NCBI GenBank assembly: GCA_951406725.2
Contig: OX597829.1
Location: forward strand, 13,764,001-13,828,000
DNA length: 64,000 bases
Reading direction: 5' to 3'
Source: Octopus vulgaris
Lineage: Eukaryota
The position numbers were made by a program, and so were the translations under genes. The notes beneath the pieces are model-generated. The model worked only from the letters and a program-made list of their open reading frames with translations. It had not been told where the DNA came from and searched no databases. Below, piece by piece: positions 15,324 to 59,554 of the stretch. Numbering within the stretch: the first letter of the stretch is position 1; the number at the start of each line of letters is the position of its first letter.

Positions 15324-15342
15324 ATGTATATATGTTTTTTTC

Positions 15343-15445
15343 ATAGCGTTTTTCAGATGGCCAGATAACCGAAGAGATGGTGTTGTGGATTTCCACCTCG
15401 GCATCCGAAACTCAGAGTTTTATATTGGCTATTGAATAATTGTCA
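15343..15445 (+). mobile_element. Solo pLTR-like unit with hammerhead-like motif (15363-15425)
   Basis: Close match to the right arm of the 31966-32202 palindrome. Confidence 0.7.
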
Positions 15446-15450
15446 CATAC

Positions 15451-15533
<83 letters not shown>

Positions 15534-29979: not shown

Positions 29980-31414
29980 ATGTATGTATGTATGTATGTA
30001 TGTATGTATGTATGTATGTATGTATGTATGTATAACAACAATACTAGTAATAATAATAATAAATCGAATGGAAAAAAATATATATAGTTATATAGTTATA
30101 TATAAAACATATATAGTTATTTATTTCTATTTGTTTATTTATCTGTGTATTTATTATGTTTTCGGGATCCTCTAAAGAACGCCTAACACAGAACTCCATA
30201 CTCGTAAACATGTACTCGCTATGTTGATGATATCAACATAGTGGTAAAGGCACCCCCACAAGAGAGTAATGTTGATATAGTAATAGAAACTAATACTATG
30301 GAGAGCATCCAGCAAATAGCTAACTCCATCCACCAGAGTATTAAGGTCACAATAGACTACCCCACTAAACACCCCAACCATAGACTACCAGTACTAGACA
30401 CTGAACTCTGGCTAGAAATTGTGAATAATAAAACCCAAATCCTTCATTCATACTATGCCAAACCTATGGCCTCAAAATACTTGATCCACCGGAACTCAGT
30501 CATTGCGGACAATGCCAAATTCAACATTTTAATGGCAGACCTCGTCAGAATAATGAGAAATGTGTCACGCATGTGATGGCCCACAGAGTTAAAGAGACAC
30601 ATACAATATTTCATTCACCGCATGCAATTCTCAGGTTACAGCCATAAGGAAATGATCAGAGTATACAAAGGAGCAATGAAGAAATTTGATAATATATTAT
30701 GTAATGATAAGAATGGGATTTGCCCACTCTATAGGAACAAGTCATGGAACACTATAGAAAGGACAAAAAAGAAAATAGCGAAGGCCAACTCTTGGTATGA
30801 TAGCCATAAATACCAGAGTGTCATGTTCGTTGAAACCACCCCTGGAGGTTAAATGGCGTACCGCTTTAGAAGGACCCTAGAAACCTTAAGCTAAGAATTA
30901 AGGTTGTTGAAAAGCCAGGCAACCCTATCAAATCTATAATTGGTAGAACCTATCCTTTTAGTAGAACCCACCTGTACGGATAAGTACTGTACTGTATGTA
31001 GATTTAGCCCACAAACAAACTGTAAAGCCAGAAATGTAGTCTATAGTATAAGATGTATAGAGGGACGATGCAGTAACAAGACAACGACATACGTAGGGGA
31101 AACGGCAAGAAGCATAGGAGAGCGGGTAAATGTACATTGGAGACAACTCAAGGAAGGTAAAAGCTCATCGATTCTGTACCAACACGCCGAACAGGAACAC
31201 GGGGGATCAATCAACAATATAGAAATTAAAATATTGTCCACACATAGAACAGATGCAACAATCACACAAATTACAGAAGCTACACAAATAATAGAAAATA
31301 AACCTAGCCTGAATAGAAAACTAGAATGGAGCACTAGCACACACCACAACATATGACGATAGAGGATTCCGAAAACATGATAAATACACAGATAAATAAA
31401 CAAATAGAAATAAA

Positions 31415-31460
<46 letters not shown>

Positions 31461-31513
31461 TATTTTCGATTCGATTTATTATTATTATTACTAGTATTGT
31501 TGTTATACATACA

Positions 31514-31542
<29 letters not shown>
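29980..31542 (+). mobile_element. 5'-truncated Penelope-like element (Neptune/Naiad-like) with an inverted copy of its 3' end at the left
   Basis: RT C-terminus IKVTIDYP..RLPVLD..YAKPMAS..MQFSGY; Cys linker CTDKYCTVC; GIY-YIG NVVYSIRC..YVGETARSIGERVNVH..ILYQH..H..EATQI..KPSLN; 29980-30174 is the reverse complement of 31360-31542. Confidence 0.9.
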
Positions 31543-31544
<2 letters not shown>

Positions 31545-31793
31545 GTAATGATAATAATAAGTGGATGTAAACACATGAACAAAATAAGAATAAACAAAAA
31601 CAACAAAAGCAAAATACAATTTACATGAACATATATAAACAGAAGATACAAATAATACACAGCATCCCCCCTCATACACACACTAAATAAACATAGACGC
31701 ACATAGAGATATAAGCATGCGCAAATGAAGACATACAATAGAAATACAAAATGGCTAACGGAGAGACAGACGAATAAGAAAGAAGAAAACAAA

Positions 31794-31838
31794 GGACCAC
31801 TGATGCGGTCACAGGAGTGTGACGAAAGAACTCTGGCC
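31794..31838 (+). ncRNA. Minimal hammerhead-like motif, probably mutated (A9 to C)
   Basis: GGACCA CUGAUGCG GUCAC AGGAGU GUGAC GAAAG AA CUC^ UGGCC; perfect 5-bp helix II. Confidence 0.5.
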
Positions 31839-31965
31839 GAAATAAAATTAAGATTAATGTAAAAAATAAATAACGCTGAAGCAAAATAACACCAAATATA
31901 TAGTGCGTGTGTTTTTATTGGTTGAACTGGCAATATGACCATTCCGAAATATAACAATATATATA

Positions 31966-32202
31966 TATAAAATAATATGTTACATTTACTCAATTGTCAA
32001 GATAAAACTCTGAGTTTCAGATGCCGAAGTGGAAATCCACAACACCATCTCTTCGGTTTTCTGGCCATCTGAAAAACGCTATCAGATAGCGTTTTTCAGA
32101 TGGCCAGATAACCGAAGAGATGGTGTTGTGGAGTTCCACTTCGGCATCTGAAACTCAGAGTTTTATCTTGACAATTGAGTAAATGTAACATATTATTTTA
32201 TA
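31966..32202. mobile_element. Head-to-head pLTR-like foldback (118-bp arms, centre 32084), hammerhead-like motif in each arm
   Basis: Arms differ at about two positions; + arm 32106-32168 reads AGAUAA CCGAAGA GAUG..CAUC U GAAAC UCAGA GUU^ UUAUCU. Confidence 0.8.
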
Positions 32203-32271
32203 GATAAATTTCTTCTATTGACATAATATTGAGGTCCCTTTCTTTCTTTTGTTTTCATACTGTTTTTACCT

Positions 32272-32325
<54 letters not shown>

Positions 32326-41799: not shown

Positions 41800-44122
41800 A
41801 GAGACCCAAAAAAAACACCTGAATGGTTAGCAAGTGGCATTACTTACCTACTCCCAAAGAATAACGAAACCAACCTTCCAAAAACTATCGGCCTATTACC
41901 TGTCTATCCACCACGTATAAAATCCTAACATCTATCCTGGCGGAGAAAACATATGCATTCATGGAGAAGAACGATATTTCCCCCATTGAACAAAAAGGGT
42001 GCCGCCGAGGCTCTTACGGATGCAAAGATCAACTGCTAATCAATCGTATGATCCTTGAGAACTGTCACGACAAGCGCAGAAATCTCAGCACCGCATGGAT
42101 TGACTATAAAAAGGCCTTCGACAGTATACCGCATCCATGGATCTTGAGATCGCTGGACATCTTCAAAATTTCCCCTGTGATTTCAAACTTCCTGAAGCAC
42201 AATATGTCGTTGTGGAATACGAATCTCCAATTATACCACTCTAATGGAGTACTTGCCTCGAGAAAATATAAACATCAACTGTGGAATTTTTCAAGGTGAC
42301 TCACTTTCAACTTTAATATTCTGCATAGCCCTAATACCCCTTACAAGTGAATTAAACAGAACAGGGTATGGGTATAAAATTGCCAATAAAAAAATAAGCC
42401 ATCTATTTTATATGGATGACTTAAAACTTTATGGTAAAGACAATAATGAACTTGAAGGCCTATTGCGCACCGTGAAAGCATTCAGCGATGACATCGGAAT
42501 GGAGTTTGGACTTGAGAAGTGTGCCAAGGCCACTTTCCAGAAGGGAGAAATTAGAAGACCACAAATTCAGTCGTGTTAGATGTTGACACAATCATAAGAG
42601 AGCTTGAGCAAGAACAAACATACAAATATTTAGGGATAAATGAAGGCTCTGGTATTCAGCATGCAAGCATGAAAGAGGAAATCAGGAAGGAATGTTATAG
42701 GAGAGTTCGTGCAGTCCTGAAATCTGAACTCAAATGCACGTAACAAGGTGTTAGCTATAAATTCCTTAGCAGTTCCAGTTGTTACTTATAGCTACAATGT
42801 GTTGAACGCTGGAATATGAGTGAAGTAAAGAATATAGATAGAAAAATACGCAAGCTGCTGAGTTGTAATAGGATGCACCACCCAAAGGCAGACGTAGATC
42901 GCCTTTACCTTCCCAGAGCCAAGGAGGTCGAGGCCTGATCCAATTTGAACTAGCTTACAAAACAACCACAATTGGACTGGCCAAATATCTCGAAATATCG
43001 AATGACTGGATGCTAAAGCTCGTGGAACATCACGAGAGACGAAAGAAGCTTCATTCTATCATAAAGGAAAGCAAAAAATTTGCTATTGATCTCGTGCAGG
43101 ATACCCAAACTGAACAACCCGAGGGGAAGTACGGCAACTATTGTTGCAAAGAAGGTGAAAATGATGGCAATGAAAAAAGCGCACGAGCAATTGGCTGATA
43201 ATTGGGAGGAGAAACCTCTGCACGGCAAATATGTGACCCGTAGCAAACAAGCTGATGTTGACCAGAAGCAAACCCATCAGTGGCTACGGAGCTCAGGGCT
43301 AAAAGCAGAGAGCGAAGGTTTCATCCTGGCTGCTCAAGATCAAAGCCTATTAACTCGGAACTACCAGGCCAATGTGATGAAAAATGGAGCAGACCCAAAA
43401 TGCCGATTCTGCAACGACATGGTTGAAACAGTGGACCACCTGAAAATCTCTGGATGTAAAGTCTTAGCACCAGTGGAGTATAAATTAAGACATGACAGAG
43501 TTGGCCAATATCTACACTGGCTAATAAGTCGGCATTACAATATCAAAACCGCCGACAAGTGGTATAATCACCACCCTGAAGCTGTAACTGAAGGAGAAAA
43601 TGTAACGATTCTGTGGGACTTTCCAGTACATACAGACCGAACCATCAAAGCCAATAAACCAGATATTGTTGTGAAAGACCAAAACAATAAAGTTTGCTTA
43701 TTGATCGACATGAGCATCCTCTGTGATCATAATATCTCAGCGAAAGAGTTTGACAAGCTCAGAAAATATAAAGACCTACTCATTGAAATTGAGAAAATGT
43801 GGCATCTCAAGGCGGTTACAATACCAGTGATCGTAGGAGCACTAAGAATGATCAAGAAGGGAACCGAAAATTATATGAGAATGATCCCTGGCTTACCATC
43901 CCTGCAAGAAGTGCAAAAGATTGTCTTAACTGGTACATCACACGTATTGAGAAGAGCATTGTCGATGTGAGAACTGTTGCTGCTCAAAAAAAAAAAAAAA
44001 TGAACGAACTACTGAGTTTGGTTTAATGGCCTACCAATGTATACTATGAGATTCTTTGCCCTAGGAGTCGGGAAGACACTCGGCAAGAAATGATAGCAAA
44101 TTTGAAAGAAGAAGAAAAAAAA
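41800..44122 (+). mobile_element. Dong/R4-clade element (family 3), 5'-truncated, frameshifted RT + RLE
   Basis: PEWLASGITYLLPK, YRPITCL, EQKGCRRGSYGCKDQL, QGDSLS, YMDD (42409-42420), CRFC..ETVDH, RHD, NKPDIVV, KLRKYKDL; TAA flanks. Confidence 0.93.
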
Positions 44123-44195
44123 GTAATAATAATAATAATAATAATAATAGATATGCACGTGTGTATGTATACACACACGTATATATATAATAACA

Positions 44196-45332
44196 AATGA
44201 CTGGATGCTAAAGCTCGTGGAAAATCACGAGAGACGAAAGAAGCTTCATTCTTTATAAAGGAAAGCAAAAAATTTGCTATTGATCTCGTGCAGGATACCC
44301 AAACTGAACAACCCGAGGGAGTACGGCAACTATCGTTGCAAAGAAGGTGAAAATGATGGCAACGAAAAAAGCGCACGAGCAATTGGTTGATAGGTGGGAG
44401 GAGAAACCTCTGCACGGCAAATATGTGGCCCGCAGCAAACAAGCTGATGTTGACCAGAAGCAAACCCATCAGTGGCTACAGACCTCAGGGCTAAAAGCAG
44501 AGAGCGAAGGTTTCATCCTGGCTGCTCACGATCAAAGCCTTATTAACCCGGAACTACCAGGCCAGAAAGTATGATGAAAAATGGAGCAGACCCAAAATGC
44601 CGATTCTGCAACGACATGATTGAAACGGTGGACCACCTAATCTCTGATTGTAAAGTCTTAGCACCAGTGGAGTATAAATTAAGACATGACAGAGTTGGCC
44701 AATATCTACACTGGCTAATAAGTCGGCATTACAATATCAAAACTGCCGACAAGTGGTATAATCACCACCCTGAAGCTGTAACTGAAGGAGAAAATGTAAC
44801 GATTCTGTGGGACTTTCCAGTACATACAGACCGAACCATCAAAGCCAATAAACCAGATATTGTTGTGAAAGACCAAAACAATAAAGTTTGCTTATTGATC
44901 GACATGAGCATCCTCTGTGATCATAATATCTCAGCGAAAGAGTTTGACAAGCTCAGAAAATATAAAGACCTACTCATTGAAATTGAGAAAATGTGGCATC
45001 TCAAGGCGGTTACAATACCAGTGATCGTAGGAGCACTAGGAATGATCAAGAAGGGAACCGAAAATTATATGAGAATGATCCCTGGCTTACCATCCCTGCA
45101 AGAAGTGCAAAAGATTGTCTTAACTGGTACATCACACGTATTGAGAAGAGAATTGTCGATGTGAGAACTGTTGCTGCTCATGTATTTTAATTTAACTTAA
45201 AAAAAAAAAAACGAACTAACTATTGAGTTTAGTTTAATGGCCTACCAAGGTATACTATGAGTTTCTTTTGCCCTAGGTGTCGGGAAGACACTCAGCAAGA
45301 AAATGGAAGCAAATTTGAAAGAAGAAAAAAAA
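44196..45332 (+). mobile_element. Second, near-identical 3' copy of Dong/R4 family 3
   Basis: Repeats 43001-44122 with scattered substitutions and indels; followed by (TAA)n. Confidence 0.92.
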
Positions 45333-48054: not shown

Positions 48055-48250
48055 AATAATAACAGAAAATATTGACATTCCTATTTTGCCCCCAAGAACT
48101 CATGTTCTACCAGGAAGTGTTTTGAAAAAAGTGGTTAGAAAGGCTTGAAGTAGTAGAGCAACATGTGGTATTGTATTATTAAATTATTTTAAGTTACACA
48201 AATAAAGGAATGAATGGATACTCACAAAAATATACTCAAATATATATATA

Positions 48251-48681
48251 TAAATTAAGAAATGGTGTCAAACGCAGGTGATATTGAAATATTTATACTT
48301 CCGACATATGTTTCGAAGAAAACATTAATATTATTCCGGAGGGAATGAAATGATGTAAAACAATGCAGTCATCTCGTCAGGAAAAGAAAAAGAGAAACAA
48401 AACATCAATAAGCCATTTTTACTGAATGTGATTACTGCATATATGATAAAGGGGAACGCTGGCAAGGTATTTTTTAGCGTTCCCCTTTATCATATACGCA
48501 GTAATCACATTCAGTACAAATGGCTTATTGATGTCTTTGTTTTCTCTTTTTTTTCCTGACGAGATGACTGCATTGTTTTACATCATTTTATTCTCTCCGA
48601 GAATAATATCAATGTTTTCTTAGAAACATTTGCCGGAAGTATGAAGAATAACACCTGCGTTTAACTCCATTTCTTAATTTA
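48251..48681. mobile_element. Head-to-head foldback (~205-bp arms) with a hammerhead motif in each arm
   Basis: Imperfect inverted arms around ~48468; abuts (TA)n on the left. Confidence 0.85.
48298..48385 (-). ncRNA. Type-I hammerhead ribozyme motif, canonical core, long helix II insert
   Basis: RNA: UUUUC CUGACGA GAUGAC...UUC GAAAC AUAU GUC^ GGAAG; palindromic helix III ACAUAUGU; the + strand twin (48551-48639) has GUC changed to GCC and a helix II base change. Confidence 0.7.
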
Positions 48682-48834
48682 TGTTATACAAAAAACATTT
48701 CACTTAAGCCTGGAATTTTTACCTTTATAAGTAGCCTGTAACATCCTTGCACTTACGTGAATTTTTGCCTCCCTGGTAACAATTTATTTATTTTTACCGT
48801 GTTATTTGTACACATTGCAAAAATACATAAACCT

Positions 48835-51911: not shown

Positions 51912-54900
51912 GATAAGTTTCTTTATTGGCCACACAGGGCTGCACACAGATGGGACAGTTTACAAGGTAGAGCTTTTCTTTTGGGGGATGAAAAAAACAA
52001 AAAAACAAAAAGAAAAGAAACAAAAAGAAGGTGGCGGTATGTTTTCGATCAAAAGGGATCGTAAAAGGGAAAAAAAAGAACAAGAAATAAAATGAAATAA
52101 AAAAAGAAAAAAAGAAAGAAAAGGAAAAGGAACAAAAAGAAAGAGAAATGAAAAAAAAAAGAATAAGGGGGAAAAAGGGGGAGAGGAAGAAAAAACGATC
52201 AATAGGGATCGTGTATCACAGTGTTATGATGTATGGTGTAAAGAGGAAAGCAACTAAGGTTTATCCGTGGGAAGAAAAGCCGACGAAAAAGACCACGGTA
52301 ACCTTGGTCAATATTGTTATATGTTACCACATTTGTTTGCAAGTGGGGGTAATCCTCTGTTTTCAATTTCTGGGTTCATAGGATTATGCTCAAGGTGGCT
52401 TCGTCATTCATACGTGCCATCCTTGCTACATTCACCCATCTTTTTTTAAAACTTTCGCTAGACAAAACTTGCCTCTCTACTCTCACTTTCCTTTTCAAGT
52501 GGTACTTGATGAAGTTGATGAGAGATTGACCAGAGAGGAAAGAGTTTGTCTCCAATCCTTTCAGACGCGTCCACCAGATACATTCTTTCGTCATAGCCAC
52601 AAGGATGATGAAAATAGCTCTTCCTTCCCGTTTGAAGGAAGGAGGCGTGACAATATTGACGCAATAGACTCGGCTGATAAAACAACTCGTCCACACGTGA
52701 CAGCAGTTGTTCGACATAAACCCTCAGGTCGGAGATTGTTGGACACTGCACGATTGCGTGCAGAACGGTTTCGTCGCTCTGGCCGCACCTCGTGCAGGTC
52801 GGCCCCGTGTTTCTCGAGCTGTGTCTGTAGAGCTTATCCCGAACGAGTAGCGCTTCTCGGTAGCACTGCCAGACCAGGGATCTCTGCAAGTTGTCCATAG
52901 GCTCTGGCTCGAAAGTCTGAACAGGCGGGTCAGGTATTCCTCGTCGATGTCCAGGTTCGCCCCAAGATCGGCGTCGTACCTCCCCTCCACTAATCCCCTA
53001 TAGAATACTTGGGTTGTGTTGAAGTCACTCACGGTCGACTCTGGACGGCAGAGGTACTTGAGAGCGACGCGACAATCGCGTTGCCATTCGCCCTCTCTCG
53101 GACAATTTTTTGATCCACGACTACCCAGTTCGGTCACGGAGACGAGTTACGGGAACGCCTGCCTCACAAGCAGCGACCACACCTGTTCACCGTCGTCTAC
53201 GAAGAGCCTGAGATGTTGCAGTCTCAGCGCGTGTCTGCACATCATCACCCACCTTATGCCCGTCCTCATTTAAACGGGTGTTGATCGCCTGACCATCGTG
53301 GCGCATCCTTTCCACAAGATGCGAAAGAGAATGCGTTCTAGTTTGGTGATGGTAGGGTCGGGACAAGGCACGACGGTCAGGAGGTAGTAGATCACGGACG
53401 CGATGTACGTGTTCGCCACCTCCGCCCGACCTTTTAGGGACAGTTTCCTCTCGGCCCATTGCCTGGTGAGAGGGAACACCCTACTCGTTATCTCGTTCTA
53501 GTTGGAAGTCCGGACCAAACCAAACTCCGAGCAACTCGACCGGACCGTCGGTCCAGCGGCCCACGACGGAGGCGCTGGTGTATGGCCCACTGACTTTTCC
53601 CGGTTGATTTTCGCTCCTGTCACCGCTTCTTAGTTTTTCAGTCTCACCGACCAGCTCGATGTGCTCGTGGCTAGAAACTATGACGGTGACGTCGTCAGCG
53701 TATGCAGACACGCTCGTCCCGCATCCCAATTCTCGCAGGATGCCCCTCAGAGTTGCCAGCTTCCACAATAATGGCTGGAGAGTCAATACGTCTTGAAGCG
53801 ACGAGAGGGGGCATCCCTGACGGACCGAACGTGCAACGTCGAAAGGTCTCGATAGATGTCCATTTTCACGAAGTACTGAACGGATGCCTCTGTACAAAGA
53901 GGTTATCCAGCCGCGGAAGACGGGACCAGAACCAGCCGCTCTGAGGACAGCCTCCAATTATTGATGGTCCACCCTATTGAAAGCTTTCGATTGATCCAAA
54001 TTGATCAGCGCCCCACCCATGCCGTGTTCCTTAACTACCCTATCTATGATGTAGCGCATCAGATGGAGGATGTCATGGATGTTCCGGCCCGGCACGGCGC
54101 ACGTTTGCGCCTTGTCGAACAGTTTCTCGATGACAAGCGCCAACCTCTTGGCTAACACCTTGGCCAAAATTTTGAAGTCTGCATTAAGCAGAGTAATGGA
54201 ACTAAAGTTGTCAATTACATTCCCCTTGTGTAGATCTTTCTTCAGCAGTGTTACGGCTCCTTGGCTCGAAAAACCAGGAATACTCCCGTTTAGCTGCAGT
54301 ACACCGCCGCCAAGATGTCTCCAAAGAAGTCTGTCATACAACTCGTAGTAAATCTCGTAGTGTAGACCATCCAAACCCGGAAATTTGTCCCTCGAGCATT
54401 CTGCCATCGCGTCCCGCACTTCCGCTGCCGTGATGGCACCTTCGCAGAGCACTACCTCTTTTGTCGAGAGTCGTGGTAGGCTGTGTAGGTAGGCACTGAA
54501 GTCCATCCTACGTTCATGCCCGCCACTCGTCCCGAAAAGTTGGGCAAAATGCGGTTGCTCCATGTCCACGTTGGCGCATTCGGGTGGTCTAGTCGGTACC
54601 TGTCAGACAGTTGAAAGCCTCTGAGCAGGTCTCTGAGGCATTTGCATCCCCGTCTGCCCACGTAGTCTACATGCGTGTCCAAGATAGCATTCCAATCCTC
54701 CACTAAGAGTAAAGGACGAGACGTTCCCAAGAATATTTCTAGACATTGAAAGAAATCCGCCCGACCTGTTAAGTGCAGTGCGTAGACTGATACGAGTCGA
54801 AAAGCGCACCCATTGCTGCCGTCAACATCCAGGACGACCAGTCTACCCTCCGGTTCTACGAATATTGTCTTTACTTTGAGATCAAGACTCTTGCGAAAAA

Positions 54901-57077
54901 GTACCGCGGTGCCACTACCGCCCATTCTTGGCAGACAGGGGGAAAATAAATGTTGAACTGTCCGCCAAACATGGTCTTTAGGTCCCAAGGATTGTGGAGT
55001 CTGGTCTCAATTATGACTATGATTTCTTACTTGTGTCATTTAAGAGGTACCCTTGTTTCCCAGAGGACCCCAAGCCACGGGCATTTACACAACCAATCTT
55101 GATCATAATCCTAGTGAATTAGAATACAAGCGAAAGGAACAGAGTGTTACTTACTGCTCGAAAGTTTTGCTTTCTTCTCCTTTGGTTTGTCCTCGAGGAG
55201 ATCCCAGTAAAATTTCTTTGTGAGGTATTTTTGGCATTTACCAACCGCACTGGGGAAAATGCCTTTTACTGTGTGGTGCAGACTTTTGGAGATGTGTAAT
55301 ATTTTGATGTGGTCTGGTGGTGTTGTGTATGGGTGATTGTTTGTTTTTATGTCATCTTCTGTTATGTTTGTTTTAGATTTGATGTATTCCATCAAATTTG
55401 TGTTTTTGGTGTCTGTGAGCTGTGAGCATGTTTGCTGTATATATTTTTGTGGTGTTGGTGTGGCTGTTGTTTTTGTTGGGTTTCGAAATGTCTTCGGGAG
55501 ATGTATTTCCCCCTGCTTTGTTTGTGTTTGCATTGGGTTTGGTTGTGTTTCTGCTCTTTATTTTCCTTCCTTTTCTAGCTATCTACCATTCCTTGTTGGT
55601 TTCGTCTTCCGACGAAATTTCTGAGGATTCAGAAGTGGGTAGGGACATGTTGTAGGCTTCTATGTATGTCTGCGCAAGTGGTTGTGTTGTTGTTTTCGTT
55701 GCTGTTGGTTGTTGAGTGTTTGTGTGTGTTGAATGCGGTATAGGGGATGGGGAATCAGTTTTTGTATATTTTTTGTTTTTCTGTCCCCTTGGTTCTTGCT
55801 GTTGTTGGTGGTGTTGGTATTTTCTCATGTGTTTTTTCAGGTGTTGAATAATTTTTGGTTGGTAATGGATTCGCTTGGTGTGCTTCTCTTGTCGTCTTCT
55901 GTGTTGATGGTGGTGTGGGTAGTTGTGCTTTTTTCTCGGAGTGTTTTGGTTGTGGTAGTGGTTGTTGTTGCTCTTGTTGTGTAGTGGTTGGACACTTCTT
56001 TTTCAAGTGTGTTTCGCTTCCACACAAATAGCAACGTTGTCGCCTGCCCTCTACTACTACATACAGTTTGTAGCCTTCTGTCAGTTCTATAGTTGTAGGT
56101 ATCTTTTCTCTTGTCTTTTCATCCAATAGGAGAAGGAATTGGTTTGATTTTCCCACCCAGTTTTTCTGTTCTAGAATAACGATTTCAAGAATGTTTGTCT
56201 CTGCCATTTCAAAGCAGATGGCAGAAACTAACCATTGTATTTCGACTCCAGGTGGTACATTTTTATTTGCATTTCGTCACCCTCTGGCCTAAATAAGTTG
56301 GTATCATCACCAAATCGTCTGAATGCAGCTCCAATGTGGAACATCATTTTACTAGATTTTCGTTGTGGAAACGTACTTGGATTGTGCCAAATTTATTTCC
56401 CCATCTAATATACTCCTTTGAATCCCATGCAGGACGAAGGCATTTTTCAATTTTTCCTGCGGTGCATTTTTTGGTTGTCTTGTTTTCTTGTTGATGTCTT
56501 TGTAAAGTGTTGTTTTTAGTGTGTGTTTTCCACGATGTGTTGTGGAATGTGAAGATGCAATTTATCCCCTTTTGTGAAGAGTGCTTTTGTGAGGTTTATT
56601 TCATGTGTGGCGAATTTTACGATTGTCCGTTTTTGTTTTGTCGCTTCCGTAATTTCGTTTTAATTTTGGTGATGTTAACAGCAGAGGAGTTAGTTGTAGC
56701 GGTTGAAGTTGTGGTAGTGGTGTTGGCGTTGGCGGTGTTGTCTTTGGTAGGAGGTTTTGTGCTGATTTCGTTGTTGTTGTTGTTGGTAGTGATAGTGGTG
56801 GTGCTGGCATCCATGTTTGCGTCTGCATTCGTTTTTGAAATCCCTTTCTCCGTCCTTCTTTCATCGACAAGTGGTGTAGGGAGTGGGGGAAAATCTAAGT
56901 TAATGTCTTTGGTGGAGGCGATGGTGAATGGTCTTACGACGTTAGTTTTGTTGTTGTTGTTGGTGGTGGTGGTGGTGGCGATAGCGGTGTTCAAGCTGCG
57001 AGGTTTAGCAGCTTATGGCAGCAATAGTGTTTCGCTACCGTTCTGCATTACTGGCGGGCTAGCCACGTGGTTTCTAG
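51912..57077 (-). mobile_element. Tx1/L1-clade copy 3, near full length, degenerate
   Basis: ORF1 from ~57000 (DFPPLP, CYLCGSETHLKKKC); APE start at ~55106; RT AYADD; C-terminal CTRCGQSDETVLHAIVQC; 3' end AATAAAGAAACTT joins (ATCT)n. Confidence 0.92.
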
Positions 57078-58442
57078 TTGCCCCTCAGAGTCGCCAGCTT
57101 CCGCAGTAGTGGCTCAAGAGTCAATACGTATAGAAGCGCCGAGAGGGGCATCCCTGACGGACCGAGAGTGCAATGTCGAAGGTCTCGAGAGATGNNNNNN
57201 NNNNNNNNNNNNNNNNNNNNNNNNNNNNNNNNNNNNNNNNNNNNNNNNNNNNNNNNNNNNNNNNNNNNNNNNNNNNNNNNNNNNNNNNNNNNNNAGTGCA
57301 ATGTCGAAAGGTCTCGAGAGATGTCCATTCACGCGAATTACCGAACGGATGCCTCTGTACAAGGCAGCTATCCAGCCGCGGAAGACGGGACCGAAGCCAG
57401 CCGCTCTCAGGACTGCCTCCAAGTATCGATGGTCTACCCTATCGAAGGCTTTCGATTGATCCAAGTTGATCAGGGCCCCACCCATGCCAGGTTCGTTAAC
57501 TACTCTGTCTATGATGTAGCGCATCAGATGGAGGTTGTCATGGATGCTCCGGCCCGGCACGGCGCACGTTTGTGCGTTGTCGACCAGTTTCTCGATGACA
57601 AGCGCCAACCTCTTGGTTAACACGTTTGTCAAAATTTTCAGGTCTGCATTGAGCAGAGTGATTGGTCTAAAGTTATCTATAATGTTCCCCTTGTTTGGTT
57701 CTTTCTTCAGCAGTGTTACAGCTCCTCGACTCACAAAACCGGGTATGCTCCCGTTTTGCTGCCAGTTGCAGTATACCGCAGCCAAAACGTCTCCAAACAA
57801 GTCTGGCATACAATTGTAAAACTCGCAGGGCAGACCATCCAAACCCGGTGATTTGTCTCTCGAGCATTCTGCCATCGCGTCCTGCACATCCGCCGCCGTG
57901 ATGGCACCTTCGCAGCACTCTGCCTCTCTTGCCGAGAGTCGTGGCAGGCTGTGCAGGTAGGCCCTGAAATCCACCCTGCGTTCACGCTCACCACTCGTCC
58001 CGTACAGTCGGGCAAAGTGCCGCTGAAATGTCTCGCACATCTTGCTGGGCTCGAGCAATTCGCGCCCTTGTTCATCTACCAGAGACCGAATGGTGGCTTT
58101 GTTGCCCTGCTGCGCCTCCGCCACCCGGGCCTCTCTCGCGGCTCCAACACCTTCGTTCCTTAGCGCACGCATCCTAGCTCTGACAGCACATCCATCGTGT
58201 TTGGCGTTGAAGTGTTGGTCGAGGGCCAACCTCGCCGCCAAAACGTCGGATTTGATGCCGCTTCTAATTGCCTCTTCTAGCTTCTTAACTAGCTTACCCT
58301 CTACTCTATTTCTATCTATGGCTAGTGCTTTGCTGTACCTAATCGCTTCTGCTTTTACTGCTCTCTTGAGGGCAAACCACCATTTGTTGTTGACAATGGC
58401 TCCCGTTAAAGCCCTTTTTACTAACGTGTTGATTCTGTCTCT

Positions 58443-58444
<2 letters not shown>
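57078..58444 (-). mobile_element. Tx1/L1-clade copy 4, RT-region fragment spanning an assembly gap
   Basis: ORF 57114-58241 with KSPGLDGLP, FRPITLLNAD and DQSKAFDRVDH; 5' truncation joins (GATA)n at 58445. Confidence 0.9.
57195..57294. other. Assembly gap (100 N)
   Basis: N run; ~28 bp are duplicated on both sides of it. Confidence 0.99.
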
Positions 58445-58479
<35 letters not shown>

Positions 58480-59554
58480 AGAGGGAGGGAGAGAGAAAGA
58501 AAAAAGAATTACAAAGAAAGAAAGAAAGAAAGAAAGAAAGAGCAAGAGAGTTTCCTTATAGCTTCTTACATTGACATTTAGGCTTCTTTGTCAATATTGA
58601 ACCCAATTGAAAGTTGCATATTGTATACATTTACATACATAGACACTTATATGGTGTGCATATATATGTATGTGTGCGTGTGCGAGCGTGCGTGTGTGTG
58701 TCTTACAACTCCAAATATCAAGAGCTACAATTATTTTTAGAAAATCAATTGCGGAAACTATGAAATATAACTACTACAACATATATAGAAAGATTAAATA
58801 GAGCGACAGAAGTATTATTAATACTAAAAGTTAAGACATTCACCACGTTAAAGTGGATGTTGCAATATTTACTCAGAGAGAAAACTCTCATATGGTCATT
58901 TGGTGCTTAAAAGCACATCATAGCTATTGCCAGCAACAGACTCTCACCGCTACTTCCGCTGACCTAACTACCAGATCACGTGATTTCGGCTTATTTTGAC
59001 CTTGTACTCGTTCACCTTTCTGAGCATATTTGTTCATATGACTATCTATGGCGTTACTGAAAACTTCTTTTTATGAAGTAAAATAGTTGAAATATCGACG
59101 CGGTTATCATCAAATCCTAGTTTTTTCTTTAATGCTCGACTATAAATACTCCTGTTTGTATTATTCGCTTACACAATTAGTGCAGAAATGAGCAGAAATG
59201 GTTCTGCGATGATTGGAAGTATAAATAAAACTTACAAGAAGAAGGAAGTTGAAAACATAGTAAGAACCTCGTTCACTGATAAAATAATTTGTTTGTTTCT
59301 GACTAAGTGCAAAAGAGAAAATGTGGTGTCGCTGGATATACTCAGGTCCTCCAAATATTATAAGAACGAAGGCTGGAATTTACCTTGAGATAGAAATCCA
59401 CATTTGCTGTTGGTTGCGTTTGCCACCAGGTTCGTCTTCTACTGAAACGAAGATAATTTCAATCAATCAAAAGTTATTCTTTTGATTTTATATACTTTTA
59501 TGTGTTTATTTCGAAGCTGGTAATATATATGTATATATGTATGCATATAGGTAG

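Follow-up and report, generated by a model that had tools for sequence, protein, structure and literature searches.

What is the long inverted repeat near position 48250 of this Octopus vulgaris sequence, and does it represent a new kind of self-cleaving element? A sequence-only reading of the 64,000-nucleotide stretch of DNA that was analysed (hereafter the window) had proposed a minimal, non-coding Penelope-type system, a foldback at 48251..48681 in which each arm carries an outward-pointing hammerhead ribozyme. We are confident of a plainer answer, that the foldback is a single, heavily 5′-truncated, two-ended insertion of a protein-coding Penelope-like retrotransposon (PLE). The insertion is likely inactive.

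The inverted repeat itself is real. The two arms are identical at 189 of 212 columns of an arm-versus-arm alignment (89%), and the foldback RNA has a predicted fold of -282.8 kcal/mol (z -40). The right end lies further out than had been read, since the sequence of the repeat family to which both arms belong (family A) continues for about 150 nt, to ~48833. The locus contains the following features:

48250..48477, minus strand: left arm, a 5′-truncated, tailless family A pLTR whose 3′ end adjoins (TA)n
48298..48385, minus strand: type-I hammerhead motif of the left arm, from the both-strand motif scan
48477..48477, no strand: head-to-head junction of the two 5′-truncated arms, with a 1-nt overlap; unique in the genome
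48477..48682, plus strand: right arm, a 5′-truncated family A pLTR, from the arm alignment
48551..48639, plus strand: decayed hammerhead of the right arm (C11.1>A, helix III palindrome broken, U16.1>C)
48683..48833, plus strand: right-arm tail of ~150 nt of family A sequence, followed by (TA)n

Both outer ends of the foldback adjoin (TA)n, and no TSD is discernible in these flanks. The left arm is 9.3% diverged from the family A majority and the right arm 7.3%, and the tailless left arm reaches 16 nt further 5′ than the tailed right arm. In full-length family A copies the tail leads to an ORF that starts ~60 nt further on. A genome-wide exact search of the centre junction returned one match in 2.80 Gb of microsatellite-rich genome.

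Do both arms carry a ribozyme? Both strands of the window were scanned for type-I hammerheads and compared with 30 block shuffles; three cores were found, at 48380(-), 32112(+) and 15369(+), where the shuffle mean was 0.1. In the left arm the core CUGACGA occupies 48380-48374 and GAAA 48314-48311, followed by ACAUAUGU and GUC. Helix I pairs UUUUC with GGAAG (two G-U pairs), and the helix III palindrome is ACAUAUGU. Helix II spans 59 nt (48373-48315), a length that is indeed unusual, as had been remarked of an insert then put at ~55 nt. The predicted cut falls after C17 at 48303, so the predicted cleavage product of the left arm would start at 48302 on the minus strand, just as the sequence-only reading had it. 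Its second ribozyme has fared less well: the right arm has C11.1>A at 48622, a broken palindrome, ACAUUUGC, and U16.1>C (GCC) at 48633. With C11.1, U16.1 and the helix III palindrome lost there, only the left arm is intact.

The left-arm copy is decayed too, and neither it nor the full foldback transcript is expected to cleave. The active fold of the left-arm copy is calculated at -4.0 kcal/mol versus -18.7 for the free fold, and its G10.1-C11.1 pairing probability is 0.0, a value that is at least 0.5 in 15 of 29 sequences. In read-through RNA from either strand the hammerhead motif is predicted to pair into the long hairpin. As the arms face outward, the antisense copy of each hammerhead is transcribed before the hammerhead itself, and the ribozyme would be trapped in the duplex; it is thus unlikely that transcription yields both a ribozyme and a long dsRNA hairpin, as had been suggested. 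The two foldback motifs cannot dimerise in cis because they lie on opposite strands. An Rfam scan of the window produced 311 matches, and the 150 listed include no hammerhead. Its miRNA matches were dismissed as microsatellite or hairpin artefacts below the gathering score.

The wider family explains the arms. The family A arm has 1,519 first-look candidates, 40 of which were scored, at 83-90% identity, and the family is old, with a mean distance of 7.0% from the majority. Among 35 arms in 30 fetched loci, the shared sequence extends 5′ of the arm by anything from 0 to >1,430 nt, as 5′ truncation would produce. In the longer copies there are broken frames for RT (‘GLYHDDCL’), thumb and GIY-YIG, in this order and on the hammerhead strand, with Pfam matches below the curated cut-offs (RVT_1 E 0.009; GIY-YIG E 0.004-0.007). 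An open frame on the opposite strand was considered as the end of a transposase and rejected, the real ORF being on the hammerhead strand. Of 30 loci retrieved with the ORF N-terminus, 16 have pLTR/tail sequence immediately before the ORF, and nine of these 16 have a whole hammerhead upstream of it; the family A pLTR with its hammerhead occurs both downstream and upstream (9/30 loci) of the ORF. The arms are the 3′ pLTR of an abundant PLE family whose other copies continue into RT and GIY-YIG ORFs, and the notion of an ORF-less, non-coding system is not supported. Among 30 position-ordered matches, only two have a same-strand ORF within 1.5 kb upstream, and ORF-less stubs accordingly outnumber coding copies.

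Three further families help to place the foldback. Families B and C have copies in the window:

15336..15466, plus strand: single tailless family B pLTR, from the motif scan
29983..31965, plus strand: family C coding PLE, with RT thumb, linker CX4CxxC and GIY-YIG
31966..32083, minus strand: left, tailless family B arm of a second foldback, from the motif scan
32085..32277, plus strand: right family B arm of the second foldback, with a hammerhead-like motif and a 68-nt tail

The second foldback had been given as 31966-32202; its geometry is as described, and its right arm continues as a tail to ~32277. The motif of this arm departs from the type seen in family A, with a CCGAAGA core at 32112, a 31-nt helix II and GUU at 32160-32162. 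The U4>C core (CCGAAGA) is found in both pLTRs of a full-length copy (L079) and in all three family B arms of the window. Family B is young, and is arranged as pLTR-ORF-pLTR in L079 and as an inverted pLTR followed by pLTR-ORF-pLTR in L078. The family C element had been placed at 29980-31542 with both 3′ ends facing out. An inverted piece is present at its 5′ junction (29983-30173). The element itself extends as far as ~31965, and the inverted arm ends ~420 nt before the element 3′ end, where it meets an internal (ATAC)n tract. In family C a motif resembling a hammerhead lies at 31797-31836; its core has A9>C (CUGAUGC), and a pattern built on this window motif finds it in 8 of 11 other loci. 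A candidate hammerhead at 31354-31380 was rejected because C3 is absent in 12 of 12 copies. Family C was also rejected as the autonomous partner of family A, as it has no tblastn match to five long family A loci. The TA-rich 3′ end of element C (31959-31969) is exactly where foldback B is inserted, so that one PLE is nested at the end of another. Family D is a young sister family (L153, L154 and L123-L152) with 2,054 first-look candidates and copies up to 100% identical. It has a long Asn-rich stretch between thumb and endonuclease that resembles the N-rich inserts described for Adineta Penelopes.

A simple rule holds across families A, B and D. In all 35 loci of a tally (11 from A, 11 from B and 13 from D), the nearest outward-facing pair joins a tailed arm to a tailless one; the tally is one that drops one T/T cross-pair (L032, where a second copy lies further out) and one double count (L078), and that excludes L120, which may have two short ends. 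The tails measure ~145-150 nt in A, 68 nt in B and ~134 nt in D. The tailed arm is the longer in 17 of 33 pairs, the tailless arm in 11, and five are equal, with L051 and L062 ambiguous in this comparison. That either arm can be longer fits two independent primings. The junctions of family D contain short snap-back copies made at a TCACWGTGA palindrome, and then joins with 3-4-nt microhomology; at the L143 junction there are three tandem snap-back rounds at this palindrome between the arms. The arms of a locus also share more private variants with each other (mean 2.2 in 10 same-locus pairs) than with arms of other loci (0.61 in 893 between-locus pairs). This excess fits a shared donor, and it also fits arm-from-arm copying or later gene conversion. 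Shared private non-CpG variants number five in the window foldback (L001) and eight in L011, over the background of 0.61. Hammerhead-breaking changes shared by the two L011 arms are among these variants and hint at conversion from one arm to the other.

How could such an insertion arise? The element protein would cut both strands of a (TA)n target, and reverse transcription would be primed on each strand, at a short start site and at a site ~150 nt downstream, the latter giving the tail. Both cDNAs would stop early, and microhomology would then join their 3′ ends in head-to-head orientation, in some cases once a palindrome had allowed a short snap-back. Given one tailed and one tailless arm, either of which may be longer, one priming per strand is the simplest inference, and the snap-back copies at family D junctions suggest that self-priming plays some part. 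In the parent element, the hammerheads of tandem pLTRs are predicted to cleave as a dimer. Several components of this scheme have precedents. Inverted 5′-truncated copies and one-sided tails have already been published for PLEs, dual min-HHRs 100-700 bp apart on opposite strands have been read as truncated PLEs (PMC4209133), and the PAc protein is described as cutting and extending both target strands, with two RT start sites that define the tail (PMC11167929).

Could self-priming explain the whole inverted arm? On this account the arm would be snapped back from the first cDNA or antisense template, and the endonuclease would trim one end. Self-priming at junction palindromes has been proposed (PMC3846280), and both the clustering of family D junctions at TCACWGTGA and the private variants shared by the arms of short foldbacks (the window locus and L011) are in keeping with it. 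We nevertheless consider it rather unlikely, because the tailless arm extends further 5′ in the 11 pairs noted above, the window locus among them with its 16 nt, and a copy cannot gain a tail or outreach its template without a second template. 

It is far less probable still that the foldback belongs to an ORF-less, non-autonomous or retrozyme-like family, mobile as a unit through PLE proteins acting in trans. The excess of stubs over coding copies, the recurrence of short foldbacks (L001, L011 and L014) and the existence of non-autonomous PLE derivatives might all be taken that way; but the stubs do not form a family, as the centre junction is unique and the other short foldbacks have centres that differ from the 48477 junction. 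The 5′ ends form a continuum into the ORF, second arm matches in the 30 loci are always inverted, with no direct tandem monomers, and the ribozyme is predicted to be sequestered in the hairpin. A DNA-type MITE or foldback transposon that carries a hammerhead-like motif by chance is, we believe, practically out of the question. Such an element could have a long, AT-rich inverted repeat in high copy number, as here, but it would not account for the asymmetric ends, the variable centres, the linkage to RT and a hammerhead that covaries. Fixed TIR and TSD ends are not seen, and the sequence-only reading was correct to set MITEs aside, as it was in calling the insertion Penelope-type and two-ended. 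The two-ended insertion of a coding PLE is the reading we retain below.

Is the hammerhead of these elements a genuine RNA structure? Core and flank conservation within family A (0.964 vs 0.943) does not discriminate, as expected of copies that decay neutrally, and sister families are needed; the hammerhead core is kept in 21 of 43 family A arms. An exact genome search with the pattern CTGANGAGA-N48-60-TTCGAAACA gave 7,139 matches, from several sister families, against five for the reversed pattern used as control. The first 30 matches, less two partner arms, make up with the window arm a set of 29 sequences, in which 7 of 13 helix II pairs are changed on both sides, with the proviso that the sequences are related by descent and that the search pattern itself prescribed the core and three of the helix II pairs. 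The helix II covariation score is 0.225 versus 0.160, with 0 of 500 shuffles reaching the score, and the number of compensated cells exceeds that of all 500 shuffles; two pair-count measures, of five helix II covariation measures applied to this set, are not above shuffle. Slid helix II registers pair at 35-49% versus 85% in the true register, and RNAalifold predicts the stem unprompted. One of five helix I pairs covaries in the same sequences, and the centre of the helix III palindrome varies between UA, UG and CG, as a dimer would need. This is a real hammerhead family, and its helix II of 53-59 nt is a conserved rod, modelled as ~13 bp, an internal loop and a hairpin of 5-7 bp. 

What might this rod do? 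We raise, as a rather improbable reading, the possibility that the long helix II evolved as a selected control module (an RT-EN docking site or a folding switch), and that the one-tail rule records a dimeric enzyme priming two strands at fixed sites 70-150 nt apart.

Family A likely belongs to the Hydra clade, judging from motifs compared by eye, with Hydra-1_Obim included. The traits given for this clade are DKT, RWK, no CCHH, CxxC/CxH around a conserved E and N, CxCX5C and (TA)n insertion (PMC8557442). The octopus families have QSDKT (A and D) or FSDKT (B), and the RWK motif is exact in B and RWL in A and D. By eye their GIY-YIG domains show CGLC..E..N..CPH (B), CGIC..E..N..CMH (D) and CPLC..E..N (A), with no CCHH. 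The (TA)n insertion is seen at both flanks of the foldback and at most other copy ends inspected. The CxCX5C linker is present in B (CSCRNKKLC). In A and D it was not seen, and an Asn-rich stretch occupies the place where it is expected in the Hydra clade; for this reason we call family A Hydra-like instead of filing it outright.

Comparison with published systems shows where the octopus elements differ. The EN+ PLEs of the Hydra clade (Craig et al. 2021, PMC8557442, including Hydra-1_Obim from Octopus bimaculoides) have the same RT with a C-terminal GIY-YIG, and they also share a CxxC...E...N...CxH end, DKT, (TA)n insertion and a type-I HHR near the 3′ end; one of them, Penelope-13_HM, has a comparable 5′-truncated inverted copy. 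However, none of the 26 Hydra rows in File S2 of that paper has a helix II longer than 26 nt, compared with 53-59 nt here, and the stated tails are 30-40 bp, compared with 68, ~134 and ~145-150 nt. The min-HHRs of Cervera and de la Pena (2014, PMC4209133) have the same short helix I, G10.1-C11.1 pair and palindromic helix III. Their helix II is 7-8 bp, whereas ours has ~13 bp and, beyond these, a distal hairpin, and carries no additional base at 9/10.1. The Poseidon element PAc (Frangieh et al. 2024, PMC11167929) resembles ours in its two-start-site tail and AT-rich targets, although our case is read from sequence alone. PAc belongs to another clade, and its ORF begins within HHR stem II; in family A, ~260 nt separate the cut site from the ORF start further downstream. 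File S2 of PMC8557442 also lists a 53-nt helix II region (9+35+9) for the hammerhead of PLE-X1_sMoe of Selaginella, an EN-minus, Chlamys-related plant PLE flagged there as departing from the canonical structure. Non-LTR retrozymes (bioRxiv 10.64898/2026.07.22.740005) carry a type-I HHR and are related to pLTRs, as here; they are reported as tandem direct monomers, whereas our copies are inverted and ORF-linked. Long helix II and long tails were not found described for the Hydra clade in the literature searched; Lunse et al. 2017 may contain long stem II variants. On long helix II or cephalopod PLE hammerheads, that search found only PMC8557442 to be relevant, as far as the available text of these sources goes.

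The foldback geometry, then, is already known; the variation lies in the long, covarying helix II and in the tail length. The practical message for annotators is that such a foldback is what a known insertion mechanism commonly leaves behind, and that labels such as MITE, miRNA hairpin or new RNA system should be avoided. Two features offer a modest handle on the role of hammerheads in PLEs and on the priming of both insertion ends: a long helix II that covaries and recurs in thousands of copies from several families, and tails of 2-4 times the published length, strictly one per insertion. If the control-module idea is correct, the young sister families would make the function of the hammerhead in PLE transposition directly testable.

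Some minor observations concern the surroundings of the foldback. Similarity between 48218-48332 of the window and 2192-2304 of L032 runs ~30 nt beyond the end of the arm, into the left flank. Contigs that span the left junction were found in two DNA-type runs, and these runs may contain the sample used for the assembly. Disrupted ORFs of non-LTR retrotransposons (RT and endonuclease-like frames) lie nearby, at 41865-45164 and 52376-58508, and there is a run of N near 57.2-57.3 kb of the window.
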